A stretch of 64,000 nucleotides of DNA. It comes from Thermoproteota archaeon (GTDB lineage: Archaea > Thermoproteota > Thermoprotei > Thermoproteales > Thermocladiaceae). The stretch's first letter is position 1. Every line of letters begins with the position of its first letter. Of the stretch, positions 25,651-61,807 are shown piece after piece. The stretch covers positions 17,049-81,048 of the forward strand of contig JAADDN010000168.1 in the NCBI GenBank assembly GCA_013153895.1, in the 5' to 3' direction. The notes under the pieces were generated by a model. That model had not been told where the DNA came from. It ran no database searches and was given only the letters and a program-made list of their open reading frames with translations. The position numbers and the translations under genes are program-made.

Positions 25651-26934
25651 TTAGAATATGCTACACGACCCACCTAGCGGACAGATATCAGGTACATAGA
25701 GCCTACTATCAAACATGTTGAAGTGATATAAGTGACCACTCTCTAACAGTCTCTTACATAGGTTTCTTCTAGTTATTTTCGATAGATAACATATGTCCCA
25801 GCTCGCGAAGTCACCACCAACATACTTAAACGATAATTTCTCCAATAGTGGCTTAAGGAACCAGAAGTATACCTTTTCTGGCGGTACCTGTGCTAGCTCT
25901 GGTATTGTCGGCTTATACATTAATGGCAGTATCGATAGTCTAGACTCTATATAGCTTGCAGAAGCATAGTCGAGACCCATAGTAATATCTAGAACATCAT
26001 CATAAGCCGTATCTCTATCTTTCCAACATGCTAGAACCATCAGACACGTCTTAACGTCAAGATCATTAAGTAGCTTAAACGTGTCAGTAATATACTTCAA
26101 GTCATGTGCAACATTTATCAGACCCATATTCTGCATCCACTTTGGTCTAAATGACCATCCAATACATATCTTACTCATATCTACATCATTGTTCTCTAAT
26201 CTGCTAACCAACTCAAACGGCATTGATGTTGAGATCGTGTAGTATGTATATACGTCCATTATGTTTCTACCACGTCTATCATAGAACTCAATTATGTAAT
26301 CACAATACTTGTTTAGATCAACACTGTATCCACTTGGTAGATCCATGCCACGTATAATATATCTTAGATCAGTTACGCGGTATAGGTCATCTATTAAATC
26401 ATTAAGCACTAGATATGGCTCACACGACCCACCAAATGATATCGAGAGATGATAAGTCGGTGGAAGCCCCCTACTATTCTTCTCTCTAATAGTCCTATAA
26501 AGAAGCTTAAGCAGTAGATTCCTTACGGCAGATACGGTCCCAGACTTAACACATGTTACATATCTCGTCCTAGAACCATAGCCTGGCGACTGAGCATAAC
26601 AGAATCTGCATCCTATTGGGCAAGTTCTCTTGTATGATACTACGAGCATTATAGCACTATCATAATCATTATCCTCAATATCTAGGTAAAAATACTCAAA
26701 ACCATTTCCACCTAATGAAGCAATTGGCAGATCACTATCCTGCCTATAATCATCTATAGTTGTAATTATTTTCTCACTACCTCTAACATATATATCATAT
26801 AGCAATCTATCAGCATCTCGTATATTTAAGACATCATCAGCAGATGAACCTCCATAACTATTATCACTATACTTTATACTCAATCTTAATCTAGAACAGT
26901 TGAACTGTATTTGAGAAAGAACCAACTTCCTCAT
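25651..26934 (-). CDS. Radical SAM enzyme with an N-terminal extension of about 100 aa and a C-terminal Cys cluster
   Basis: CPIGCRFCYAQ (CxxxCxxC) at about residue 104. Four Cys in the last 50 aa or so (DICY...NLCK...DICPLGGSCSIF). Confidence 0.85.
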   Translation of the reverse strand: MRKLVLSQIQFNCSRLRLSIKYSDNSYGGSSADDVLNIRDADRLLYDIYVRGSEKIITTIDDYRQDSDLPIASLGGNGFEYFYLDIEDNDYDSAIMLVVSYKRTCPIGCRFCYAQSPGYGSRTRYVTCVKSGTVSAVRNLLLKLLYRTIREKNSRGLPPTYHLSISFGGSCEPYLVLNDLIDDLYRVTDLRYIIRGMDLPSGYSVDLNKYCDYIIEFYDRRGRNIMDVYTYYTISTSMPFELVSRLENNDVDMSKICIGWSFRPKWMQNMGLINVAHDLKYITDTFKLLNDLDVKTCLMVLACWKDRDTAYDDVLDITMGLDYASASYIESRLSILPLMYKPTIPELAQVPPEKVYFWFLKPLLEKLSFKYVGGDFASWDICYLSKITRRNLCKRLLESGHLYHFNMFDSRLYVPDICPLGGSCSIF

Positions 26935-51998: not shown

Positions 51999-52055
51999 GT
52001 GTTTATAATAGGTTATGCGATATTAAAGCGGGATCTATGATGGTTAAGTGAGTAG

Positions 52056-52063
52056 TTTATATA
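52056..52063 (+). promoter_or_regulatory. TATA box
   Basis: TTTATATA centred 27 nt upstream of the ATG at 52087. Confidence 0.5.
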
Positions 52064-52086
52064 CCCTAACACTCATCTACGGTAAC

Positions 52087-53268
52087 ATGAGTTCGAAAGT
52101 TGTTGAGAAAGAGAAGAAGACACGGGCACGGGCTAGAATAAGGGTGAAGAAGAGTAATGATGTTATTGCTAAGATTCTGGATGTAGCCTTTCCTGTAGGT
52201 GATATCCAGCTTGACCATAGTATAGAGGTACGCTCAGTATATCATCTATATGAGATGATGAAGCGTGGAGTAATATACATTGATCCAGATCTCCAGCGTG
52301 GATACGTATGGGATGATGTTAAGGCTAGCCTCTTCATCGATAGTCTCTATCGTGGATATCCTGTCCATATGATACTCCTAGCCAGGCTAGGTAAAGATAG
52401 GTACACTGTGATAGATGGTGTACAGAGACTAGTAACTATTAGAAGGTTCTTCGATAACGAGCTCAGAATACTGAAAGTATCTGTAATCCATCCAGATATA
52501 CGTGGAAGAAGCTTCTCATCGCTTAAACATGATATCCGTGAGAAGTTTGTTACCTCTATATCCATGCCCGTATGCTTTATAAATCTTGGCAATCTAGATG
52601 AGAAGGCTATATCTGTAATAACAGATATGCTGCGTAGAGTAAACATTAGTGAGCAGAAGATGACTACAATGCAGGTAATATTCTGTACATTTAAGACACC
52701 TAGTATACAGCTTATAAAGAGAATGTCAGAATATGAGAACTATAGAAAACTTCTAAAGTTCACTGAAAGTGAGATAAAGGCAATGTATGATAAGGTTCTT
52801 CTAATGAACCTTGCAATATCTGTACATAGTGGAAAGGTAGTATACTTACAGGGATACTGTTTCAGGTCAAGCATGCCATACTTCTCAAAGTTCATACTGG
52901 AGAACGATGAGAAGAAGCTTAGAGATGTTGAACAGTGGATAAAAGATATTATAGATACATGTATAGAGCTTGGACTAGAGAGGAAACATTTCACCACATC
53001 CTACTATGGTCTCTCACGTGCTATGAGAGAGGTAGTGTCGAAGTGGATCTTCACTGCTATAACGGTAGCATTGTTCAGACTGTTACGTGAACATGATAGG
53101 GAGGAGGTTATAAAGAGGAGGGAGGAGCTTGTTAGAGCTATCGAGGACTATTTCAGGAATATTGACAAGACATTATATGTACATGTTCTACGTGCATCAT
53201 CTATAGATCATATAGCTAAGATAGTTGATGGTCTGTACATGAGGTTAGAATCTGTTTTCAAGTCATAA
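52087..53268 (+). CDS. DUF262 (ParB-like/GmrSD N-terminal type) protein without a recognisable nuclease domain
   Basis: IDPDLQRGYVWDDVKASLFIDSLYRGYPV...YTVIDGVQRLVTIRRFF matches the DUF262 signature. The track ORF begins at GTG 52048, and I prefer the ATG at 52087 given the TATA position. Confidence 0.8.
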   Translation: MSSKVVEKEKKTRARARIRVKKSNDVIAKILDVAFPVGDIQLDHSIEVRSVYHLYEMMKRGVIYIDPDLQRGYVWDDVKASLFIDSLYRGYPVHMILLARLGKDRYTVIDGVQRLVTIRRFFDNELRILKVSVIHPDIRGRSFSSLKHDIREKFVTSISMPVCFINLGNLDEKAISVITDMLRRVNISEQKMTTMQVIFCTFKTPSIQLIKRMSEYENYRKLLKFTESEIKAMYDKVLLMNLAISVHSGKVVYLQGYCFRSSMPYFSKFILENDEKKLRDVEQWIKDIIDTCIELGLERKHFTTSYYGLSRAMREVVSKWIFTAITVALFRLLREHDREEVIKRREELVRAIEDYFRNIDKTLYVHVLRASSIDHIAKIVDGLYMRLESVFKS

Positions 53269-60127: not shown

Positions 60128-60418
60128 ATGAGTGAGGAAGAGAAGATTGGTCCTAGGATTGGTCCTAGACTGCTTATATATCTTGTGGCTGTTATAGTGC
60201 TGATAATAATAGCGTATAAGTATGGTTATCTATGGGTATTAGAGGGGTATGGTGCTGGTTGGGTAACAATAGCTCTCTGTGTTGTAGGTATAGTAGCATT
60301 ATTATCTACCTATATTTTTATAAACATTAAGACGCATGGCGAGCTGGCAACAGTTGCAAAGTATAGAAAGTATTGGTCATATAGAGAGGATAGTGAGAAG
60401 AGAAAGAGGAGAAGATAG
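60128..60418 (+). CDS. 2-TM membrane protein with a KYRKYWSYRE tail
   Basis: Two hydrophobic helices, then the YW motif and a basic end. Confidence 0.8.
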   Translation: MSEEEKIGPRIGPRLLIYLVAVIVLIIIAYKYGYLWVLEGYGAGWVTIALCVVGIVALLSTYIFINIKTHGELATVAKYRKYWSYREDSEKRKRRR

Positions 60419-60451
60419 TTCGGATATATATCTCGTCATGTATTTACTATT

Positions 60452-60940
60452 ATGGATAAGAGAGTAAAAATACTTGTATCAGTACTTGACCTATTATATT
60501 CACTATTCATTATATATGTTCTATATCTTACTAGTCTATACGCTATAAATCATGTAACGCTTACAAGACTAATAAAGTATTTTATCATTTATACAGTACT
60601 AACATTAGTATTTGGATGGAGAACAGGAACGGTTTTTAGTAGCATGTTATCTATATTTGGTGTATATTATATGACTAAACTGTTAAACTATGTTGCAGGA
60701 TATTATAGTGTTATTGGTTCAGTAATATTTTTCTCTCTAATAGTCATATATTTCTCAGTAAAGTATAGAAATGAGATTCTCAATGGAAAGTCGCTGGTTG
60801 TTAGAGGAGTCCTATTAATATTGTATGCAGTTATTGTTGAAGGTTTGCTTTATAGATCTCCTATAGGTCTCTCATTATTTATCGGGATAGGCGTGTTCAT
60901 GATCTTTCTCCGTCTCTTCATGGAGATAGACCAGCTTTAA
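60452..60940 (+). CDS. Multi-pass membrane protein
   Basis: ATG start, hydrophobic throughout. Confidence 0.75.
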   Translation: MDKRVKILVSVLDLLYSLFIIYVLYLTSLYAINHVTLTRLIKYFIIYTVLTLVFGWRTGTVFSSMLSIFGVYYMTKLLNYVAGYYSVIGSVIFFSLIVIYFSVKYRNEILNGKSLVVRGVLLILYAVIVEGLLYRSPIGLSLFIGIGVFMIFLRLFMEIDQL

Positions 60941-60964
60941 AACCTAGATCATCATATATATCTA

Positions 60965-61807
60965 ATGTTTATTGATTTAACAGGTATCGAGCTCAAGATT
61001 CCAGTCTTTGCCAGCTCTCTTCCATGCTCTGTCTATTATCCCTATGTTCTCACTCATGTTAACTCTATTGATCGTGAATATAGGTACATGATTAAGGCTA
61101 GGCTGATCATATTAGATATTAATGTTCATAGATTCACAAGAATAGGAGACTATCCTATAAGAGAGCTAGCACGGTACTACTATACTGCTAGAAGCCTTGC
61201 TAGAAGACTGGGGGAGAGGCTGATTATCGTGCTTCCTGATCTTCCATGGGATGACTATTTTAGAGGAACTAGATACATAGATAATATACGTAGAACATAT
61301 ACATACCATTACGCATTGATTAGCAGAATAGTTGAAATATGTAGGAAATACGGTTCAAAGATGATGCCAGTAATACAGCATAGACATAGTCTAGATACGG
61401 TAACAAGATCATCACTCTATGTCCTGGACATAGCTGAGAGATATAGAGACTATATATATGGTATAGGAATAGGAAGCCTCTGCGTATCTAGAAGCATTAG
61501 AAAGATAGTCAACATAGTTAACACTGTTAGATGGGTACTAGGATATGACTATAGACTACATCTCTTCGGAGTATCTATACGCGTGCTCGACCATGTTAAA
61601 GACAGGATAAGTATAGATAGTACAGGCTGGACAAGACCAGTAGATGAAGCAACATGGAGAACAGTAGAAGGAAAGAGAAGATCGTGCACAAGCGAGAGAG
61701 CGAGAACAGTATATTTCCTACTATGGATAAGAAAGATACTTGAGAAGCTTGGACAGGATGTAGATATTGTCGATAAATATATTAATATGATAATAAAAAG
61801 ATTTTAA
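60965..61807 (+). CDS. Minimal tRNA-guanine transglycosylase superfamily protein (DpdA-like candidate)
   Basis: The ordered motifs KIPVFASS, LIILD, VLPDLPW, MPVIQHRH, YGIGIGSL, RLHLFGVS and SIDSTGWTRP parallel ArcTGT motifs TPAIMPV, DSGSFQ, LDIPTP, ATIQGS, PIGGV, VHLFGAG and LFDSASY. There is no CxCxxC zinc motif and no PUA domain. Confidence 0.6.
   Translation: MFIDLTGIELKIPVFASSLPCSVYYPYVLTHVNSIDREYRYMIKARLIILDINVHRFTRIGDYPIRELARYYYTARSLARRLGERLIIVLPDLPWDDYFRGTRYIDNIRRTYTYHYALISRIVEICRKYGSKMMPVIQHRHSLDTVTRSSLYVLDIAERYRDYIYGIGIGSLCVSRSIRKIVNIVNTVRWVLGYDYRLHLFGVSIRVLDHVKDRISIDSTGWTRPVDEATWRTVEGKRRSCTSERARTVYFLLWIRKILEKLGQDVDIVDKYINMIIKRF

Follow-up and report, generated by a model that had tools for sequence, protein, structure and literature searches.

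A divergent DpdA-like protein, very probably of the tRNA-guanine transglycosylase superfamily, in a virus-like element of hydrothermal-vent archaea

DpdA, a relative of tRNA-guanine transglycosylase (TGT), is regarded as the signature protein of viral 7-deazaguanine DNA modification (PMC10516641). Described forms include the zinc-less DpdA1 proteins (~300 amino acids, aa) of Escherichia phage CAjan (gp35) and phage 9g; the bacterial DpdA (bDpdA) of Salmonella Montevideo (PDB 7UI4), found with DpdB and DpdC, for which a double-displacement mechanism has been proposed (PMC10164549); and minimal TIM-barrel proteins of ~290-310 aa in crenarchaeal viruses, both Bicaudaviridae (STSV2_15, STSV1 ORF18) and Rudiviridae (SIRV1 gp06 ORF306, SIRV2 gp13 ORF310 and others). 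Next to dpdA, CAjan encodes a transporter and all of the preQ0 pathway, and its DNA is 32% modified at G (PMC6884629). A catalogue of 2019 lists DpdA homologs from 12 Ligamenvirales and 2 Bicaudaviridae. Here we describe a gene for a 280-aa DpdA-like protein in a 64,000-nucleotide stretch (the window) of contig JAADDN010000168.1 from a Thermoproteota archaeon assembly, part of a ~91-kb virus-like element of hyperthermophilic, probably Thermoproteales-type archaea of hydrothermal vents. The protein is very probably a member of the TGT/DpdA base-exchange superfamily, and among characterised proteins it comes nearest to the zinc-less DpdAs of crenarchaeal viruses and to phage DpdA1.

The protein belongs to a family of 14 among 5.8 billion clustered proteins, all metagenomic and 33-79% identical to it, in which no member is named or has a Pfam domain. 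The initial annotation had read seven TGT-barrel motifs in the translation of this open reading frame (ORF), and all of them are there in the order claimed: KIPVFASS (starting at residue 11), LIILD (47), VLPDLPW (89), MPVIQHRH (134), YGIGIGSL (165), RLHLFGVS (197) and SIDSTGWTRP (216). Residues D92, P94, D96, F99, G101, N107, T111, Y114, H115, Q138, H139, R140, S149, G170, L172, C173, H199, G202, S216, D218, T220, W222, T223 and R247 are invariant in the family, and D51 is kept in all 13 members that cover that position; invariance across members so divergent indicates that the seven motifs are more than chance. The isoelectric point (pI) lies between 9.2 and 9.8 in all 14. The initial annotation was also right that the protein has neither a CxCxxC...H zinc site (there is no CxCxxC, and Cys occurs only at 21, 126, 173 and 241) nor PUA-type C-terminal domains, as the chain stops shortly past the barrel and no PUA domain was found in the Pfam scan. 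Likewise, length, model and Pfam scan give no sign of the C1/C2/PUA RNA-binding domains of archaeal TGT (ArcTGT). The structural zinc site (CxCx2C...H) of bDpdA and canonical TGT is absent from CAjan DpdA1 and STSV2_15 as well, so that its absence here rules out bDpdA and true TGT, though not a viral DpdA.

No direct match to the protein was found in Pfam, NCBIfam or PADLOC, even at E <= 10. Since CAjan DpdA and STSV2_15, run as controls, also had no Pfam match at E <= 1, silence in Pfam is not evidence against membership. The only direct library matches were to two PHROG families labelled 'queuine tRNA-ribosyltransferase': phrog_1279 (E 2e-4, residues 105-223 colinear with profile positions 103-218 of 260) and phrog_887 (E 0.011). 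Four of six close family members, this protein included, match phrog_1279 directly (E 2e-4 to 7e-5); the match to this group of ~260-aa phage proteins is weak and partial, and its function label is annotation only.

The connection to known DpdAs runs through intermediates. A profile search of 1.84 billion representatives yielded 154 intermediate proteins at E <= 1e-3, mostly of ~250 aa and matching end to end. The query family was aligned as A2, and the query with 46 intermediates as A3 (47 sequences). Within A3, 18 of the 47 sequences match phrog_1279 (best E 2.4e-11), 11 match PF23859 DpdA (best E 2.7e-9) and one matches PF01702 TGT; the only invariant residues are D92, H199, S216 and D218, with G202 nearly so, and the consensus motifs read IIDsGV, IPDYPDDY, viQg, IHaFG and SfDSxAWT. 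Each profile link was tested apart, the query having first been taken out of the intermediate set. The query family matched the intermediates-only profile with an hhalign probability of 100% (E 6e-43, 242 columns), and the intermediates matched a profile of crenarchaeal-virus DpdAs (STSV2_15, SIRV1, SIRV2, SIRV9, SIRV11 and V65) at 92.4% (E 5e-7, 151 columns that include all three active-site Asp). With the query included, the intermediate profile matched the same viral profile at 93% (E 3-5e-7 over the two comparisons), and the intermediate-rich profile matched CAjan DpdA at 68% (E 5e-5). Thus, the homology to DpdA first proposed from the translation is borne out at the sequence level, though the assignment is transitive, via intermediates, because the query family alone reaches no reference directly.

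Neither A2 nor A3 matched DpdA3 of Cellulophaga phage phiST (CGPG_00065; hhalign probability <1%), and PF20314 (DUF6610; DpdA4 of the HVTV-1 type) matched neither the query nor a single one of the 47 sequences in A3. When the protein and the A1 and A3 profiles were searched against PDB sequences, only chance matches came up. E. coli TGT was rejected as a bridge to phage DpdAs, having retrieved only genuine tRNA TGTs.

An AlphaFold2 model built from the 14-sequence alignment (mean predicted local distance difference test score, pLDDT, 84.4; predicted template-modelling score 0.85) has eight beta-strands alternating with helices, a predicted TGT-type (beta/alpha)8 TIM barrel in which every conserved motif lies at the C-terminal end of a barrel strand. 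In a Foldseek search of the PDB, the top 25 matches were all Zymomonas TGT (E ~1e-5, probability 1.00, template-modelling (TM) score 0.45-0.53). Among the top matches in predicted viral structures (BFVD) were a protein of Vibrio phage nt-1, 'queuine tRNA-ribosyltransferases' of mycobacteriophage and Arthrobacter phage, and a putative TGT encoded by Sulfolobales Beppu rod-shaped virus 1 (SBRV1); the best viral superposition was with an unnamed 240-aa protein (TM 0.57/0.65, root-mean-square deviation 4.9 A). Support for a TGT fold was one of two sequence-level points on which the DpdA assignment had been staked beforehand; the other was conservation of the catalytic Asp positions, and this too was found.

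Three active-site Asp are invariant in TGTs and DpdAs; in the S. Montevideo enzyme Asp95 acts as general acid/base, the base is read by Asp130 and His181, the substrate loop is made up of Gly206/Gly207, and Asp256 serves as nucleophile (PMC10164549). The predicted catalytic pair of CAjan DpdA is Asp63 and Asp206, the latter the nucleophile (PMC7544227). Their counterparts in the present protein, D51, D92 and D218, are in register with CAjan DpdA and, in STSV2_15, with the motifs DSGG, LDIP and SVDT (Table 1). By alignment Q138 is the counterpart of the Gln of the TGT motif IVQGG (Q203) and of a His in viral DpdA. The loop aligned to the GG-L of TGT and DpdA, which follows beta-6 and holds the 7-substituent, reads G170-S171-L172-C173; it is conserved in the family and has GS in place of GG. 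From D51 through D92, Q138 and G170 to D218 the spacing is 41/46/32/48, which resembles the 35/51/25/50 of S. Montevideo DpdA (PMC10164549). The extra invariant residues H139, R140, C173, W222 and R247 also set the family apart from all characterised enzymes.

Table 1. Features of the DpdA-like gene and its upstream region, in window coordinates
Feature	Position	Strand	Description	Basis
DpdA-like (TGT-superfamily) TIM-barrel protein	60965..61807	+	280-aa ORF, pI 9.8	Family alignment, AlphaFold2 model, Foldseek, profile chain
D51 codon (LIILD), predicted general acid/base	61115..61117	+	Aligns with CAjan D63 (FLDSGAF) and STSV2_15 D44 (VDSGGYQ)	Global and local hhalign
D92 codon (VLPDLPW), predicted base-recognition Asp	61238..61240	+	Aligns with CAjan D105 and STSV2_15 D78 (SLDIP)	
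Q138-H139-R140 codons (VIQHR)	61376..61384	+	Q138 falls on Gln of IQG (E. coli TGT) and His of VIH (STSV/SIRV)	
G170-S171-L172-C173 codons	61472..61483	+	Aligns with AVGGL (E. coli TGT) and FGGI (STSV2_15); counterpart of Gly-rich substrate loop	
H199-L-F-G202 codons (RLHLFGVS)	61559..61570	+	Aligns with IHVLG (STSV2), LHAFG (CAjan) and YLMGVG (TGT)	
D218 codon (SIDSTGW), predicted catalytic nucleophile	61616..61618	+	Aligns with CAjan D206, STSV2_15 D187 and Asp of FDCV (E. coli TGT)	
TTTAAAA, TATA-box-like	60935..60941	+	~27 nucleotides 5' of ATG	Read from sequence
Two co-directional membrane-protein genes directly upstream	60128..60940	+	96 aa; 162 aa with six predicted transmembrane helices; no Pfam match	

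The DpdAs of STSV and SIRV are among the closest known systems. They and the present protein are minimal TIM barrels without zinc motif or PUA domain, encoded by viruses or virus-like elements of thermophilic Thermoproteota, and their three Asp, H-x-x-G motif and S-x-D-[ST] nucleophile motif line up. STSV2_15 lies beside thymidylate synthase and ArcS, and relatives of the present gene likewise lie in blocks with thymidylate synthase. The differences are that direct similarity is not significant, that DSGG[FY]Q is replaced by D-I-[NH]-V-H-R-F and the His of VIH by Q-H-R, and that the gene has neither an adjacent ArcS (as in STSV) nor a ~399-aa permease (as in SIRV). With DpdA1 the protein has in common the zinc-less form and the alignment of D51 and D218 with D63 and D206, whereas no counterparts of the preQ0 pathway and transporter of CAjan were found in the window. 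The bacterial enzyme has the same three conserved Asp but also four insertions, a CxCx2Cx22H zinc site and a need for the DpdB ATPase; the present protein has neither insertions nor zinc site, and no direct match to PF23859. TGTs (bacterial TGT and ArcTGT, PF01702) provide the best PDB fold matches and the same motif order (D...D...Q...G-loop...G...D); they differ in their zinc subdomain, N-terminal lid and C-terminal or PUA domains, PF01702 is not matched, and the TM score is ~0.5. Because DpdA homologs of crenarchaeal viruses have been known since 2019, no new category is created; the family is a very divergent, rare branch of a known kind of DpdA, in a new group of elements.

All relatives of the gene were found on similar virus-like contigs. 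In two distant relatives (P0012 and P0013, on contigs L007 of 80 kb and L008 of 61 kb) the gene is part of a nucleotide-metabolism and replication block (L007 4744-14544, L008 5394-14760) that opens with genes for a PriL-type primase large subunit and NrdD. The DpdA-like gene comes next, and a few ORFs downstream of it lie a metallophosphatase and a thymidylate synthase, which is ThyX on L007 and a ThyA fusion on L008; dCTP deaminase is present on L007 only. The DpdA-like gene directly follows NrdD on one of the two contigs and is one ORF removed from it on the other. Elsewhere the relatives lie near a PD-(D/E)XK nuclease, AAA_24 ATPase, Prim-Pol, DUF5131 or resolvase gene. L007 and L008, both ORFan-rich, appear to be large, undescribed archaeal viruses of 61-80 kb with their own supply of deoxynucleoside triphosphates (dNTPs).

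By analogy with the characterised enzymes, the protein may be a post-replicative exchanger of guanine in element DNA for a host-derived 7-deazaguanine, the likeliest of the readings considered, to which we give an even chance of being right. Base exchange would take place by double displacement at the C-terminal face of the TIM barrel, as in TGT and DpdA: D218 would attack C1' of a flipped-out deoxyguanosine to give an intermediate in which enzyme and DNA are covalently linked, with D51 as general acid/base and with D92, Q138 and the G170-S-L-C loop holding the purine, whereupon guanine would leave and its place would be taken by a 7-deazaguanine (preQ0 or some neighbouring intermediate of its pathway). 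As the element has no detectable synthesis genes, that base would come from the archaeosine pathway of the host. The modification would be expected to shield element DNA against host restriction. What the sequences and the model show is the homology, the fold, the conserved and aligned catalytic residues, the basic charge and the setting among viral nucleotide-metabolism genes; from the analogy we infer the DNA substrate, the inserted base, the extent of modification and its purpose alike. Thermoproteota make preQ0 for archaeosine. Sulfolobus hosts were reported to encode the G+ pathway, and DpdA expressed alone in E. coli modifies DNA with host preQ0 (PMC6884629).

Several observations weigh against this reading. 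The query-family profile, which is shallow (Neff 2.6), is on its own not significant against STSV2_15, the STSV/SIRV profile, CAjan DpdA, DpdA3 or E. coli TGT. The fold is matched to a moderate degree (TM 0.45-0.57), with an unrelated TIM barrel at PDB rank 26. Replacement of the DSGG motif by D-I-[NH]-V-H-R-F and of the GG loop by G-S indicates that the substrate pocket differs from those of the characterised enzymes. Pfam scans of essentially all ORFs of at least ~66 aa in the window, which starts ~17 kb from the contig's left end, found no QueC, QueD, QueE, FolE, QueF, ArcS or DpdB/C family member, as the initial annotation had stated for the preQ0 synthesis genes; nor was any 7-deazaguanine synthesis, ArcS or transporter gene found within ~10 kb of six relatives. 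Experience with other viruses points the same way: by liquid chromatography-mass spectrometry (LC-MS), the DpdA-only phage Orion had no modification and the DpdA-only phage 7-11 only traces, ~50 dADG per 1e6 nucleotides (PMC6884629), and STSV2, with DpdA and ArcS, had dCDG at 0.04% of G, of unexplained origin (PMC10516641). The inference that the element's DNA may be hypermodified is weakened by the absence or near-absence of modification in tested DpdA-only viruses.

The same observations bear on what else the protein might do. An exchange or excision enzyme for DNA that handles some other base than the known 7-deazaguanines, inserting another purine analogue or acting as a plain glycosylase, for instance on the DNA of host or competitor, is unlikely, although the pocket motifs (DI[NH]VHRF, GS and the five extra invariant residues) differ from those of every characterised DpdA and TGT, the window and the surroundings of the relatives show no detectable 7-deazaguanine genes, and dCDG in STSV2 is not the modification that had been predicted (PMC10516641). 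All three Asp of the double-displacement mechanism and the equivalent of TGT Q203 are retained, the intermediate clade has one member that is coupled directly to QueT, and no TGT-fold enzyme with another base specificity is known. A protein with the DpdA-like fold but little or no natural modification activity, or with a non-catalytic role in DNA binding, is less probable still. Such a protein would be in keeping with the sparse modification of Orion, 7-11 and STSV2 (PMC6884629, PMC10516641) and with the suggestion of Hutinet et al. that singleton DpdAs may have diverged functionally, but three Asp and ~20 further residues are strictly invariant across members 35-40% identical, which indicates selection for catalysis.

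Membership in the TGT superfamily, together with the RefSeq label of 'queuine tRNA-ribosyltransferase' on the nearest viral relatives, might also be taken to mean that the substrate is RNA (host or viral tRNA, or another RNA) and the protein a minimal archaeosine-type TGT, and its basic charge would suit any nucleic acid. This is very improbable, since the zinc subdomain, C-terminal domains and PUA that ArcTGT uses in tRNA recognition are all missing, the window has no tRNA genes, relatives' genes sit among those for DNA precursors and replication, and the nearest characterised relatives either modify DNA (CAjan DpdA) or are tied to modified DNA (STSV2) (PMC6884629, PMC10516641). The setting among NrdD, metallophosphatase and ThyX or ThyA on L007 and L008, and the NrdD and dCTP deaminase encoded in the window, would fit an enzyme of the nucleotide pool that works on free (deoxy)nucleosides or nucleotides, exchanging or removing their base, in the dNTP supply of the element. 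To our knowledge, though, no TGT-fold enzyme acts on free nucleotides, and the high pI suggests a polymeric substrate. Moreover, all known 7-deazaguanine DNA modifications have been concluded to be post-replicative (PMC10516641), and phage DpdA genes commonly lie near nucleotide-metabolism genes, such as ribonucleotide reductase in phiST, so that a role in the pool, too, has little probability.

The family evades current Pfam, NCBIfam and PADLOC models and phage tblastn searches, yet it keeps the complete catalytic machinery; its sequences and alignment would improve detection models. It extends the range of DpdA-like proteins to large uncultivated virus-like elements of hydrothermal-vent archaea. 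If the protein exchanges guanine as proposed, guanines of the element would be modified via the archaeosine pathway of the host, and restriction, CRISPR targeting and sequencing would be affected. A more far-reaching and improbable proposal is that the 14 proteins constitute a distinct new DpdA subfamily restricted to large viruses of vent and hot-spring Thermoproteota, with a remodelled pocket (DI[NH]VHRF, QHR, GSLC), perhaps inserting a base undescribed in DNA and perhaps paired with a DUF262/ParB NTPase encoded at 52048-53268 of the window. Such a pair would be the first of the DpdA/DpdB type in a virus, and it would provide the first evidence of 7-deazapurine DNA in this group of viruses.

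That NTPase is a 406-aa DUF262/GmrSD_N protein (+ strand) with the motif IDGVQRL (of the DGQQR NTPase type), a helical C-terminal half and no nuclease domain, an architecture that has been described for DpdB, the ParB-like ATPase needed by bacterial DpdA. As a DpdB partner it is a lead only and was not accepted, because it lies 8 kb away in a separate operon and does not co-occur near relatives.

The element itself was examined through the window, which lies within a metagenome contig of 90.9 kb. Contigs of two further assemblies carry this gene too, and its sequence occurs in only one sequencing run, a hydrothermal-vent metagenome stored in the form of assembled contigs. The sole match to the protein in 185,579 species genomes was on an 8.4-kb contig binned with a Thermoproteales metagenome-assembled genome. 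No relative was found in IMG/VR, and in tblastn the protein matched none of 50,697 phage and archaeal-virus records. Coding sequence, for the most part ORFans, takes up 88% of the window. Recognisable genes encode NrdD, dCTP deaminase, three helicases, an S8 protease, an AAA+ ATPase, a TFIIB-type zinc ribbon, Csx3, a nucleotidyltransferase and the DUF262 (GmrSD_N) protein, and a resolvase and a T4-type RNA ligase are encoded just outside. A 427-aa protein (25651-26934, - strand) with a radical-SAM-like CPIGCRFC (CxxxCxxC) was considered as QueE and rejected, as neither Pfam nor PDB gave support; it is not assignable as the NrdG activase either.

The TTTAAAA upstream of the DpdA-like gene (Table 1) is possibly a promoter of its own, to judge from the sequence, in which case the mRNA would be leaderless. 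A scan for promoters and terminators of the bacterial type found 12 sites where 10 were expected, which is uninformative. The two membrane-protein genes upstream are described as context only, with no functional partnership claimed. Both are kept on contig L021 of the closest relative, where the 96-aa protein is 76% and the 162-aa protein 34% identical. The 96-aa protein (60128-60418, + strand) has two transmembrane segments and a YW tail, ending in KYRKYWSYRED. The 162-aa protein was considered as a QueT/YhhQ-like 7-deazapurine transporter, an assignment that is unsupported, though not disproved: it has no similarity to a QueT of contig L018 or to CAjan gp41, is not conserved upstream of more distant relatives, and gave an AlphaFold2 model of pLDDT 63 with no fold match.

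A few observations on other contigs may be added. The ThyA fusion of L008 (12946-14760; ENA ERZ27262685 k141_323135) is a 604-aa protein in which an MtrA-like domain is joined to the thymidylate synthase, an unusual architecture that might indicate pyrimidine hypermodification. On L018 (6609-7832; Logan SRR32473244_22121), a phage-like contig on which a D12 adenine methyltransferase is encoded as well, the S-component of a queuosine-precursor transporter, QueT (156 aa), is encoded 25 nucleotides upstream of an intermediate-clade DpdA-like protein of 242 aa, and the two look like a compact 'import plus insert' module. The TGT/DpdA-like gene of five rudiviruses (SIRV1, SIRV2, SIRV9, SIRV11 and V65; L013-L017) always directly follows that of a ~399-aa 'amino-acid permease', an arrangement that suggests a conserved transporter-transglycosylase pair. 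Finally, an unannotated protein of Methanobacterium virus PhiF1 (MK994522.1, 11181-11825) is 25% identical (E 1e-4) to a DpdA-like protein of the intermediate clade, and is possibly the product of an overlooked DpdA-like gene in a methanogen virus.

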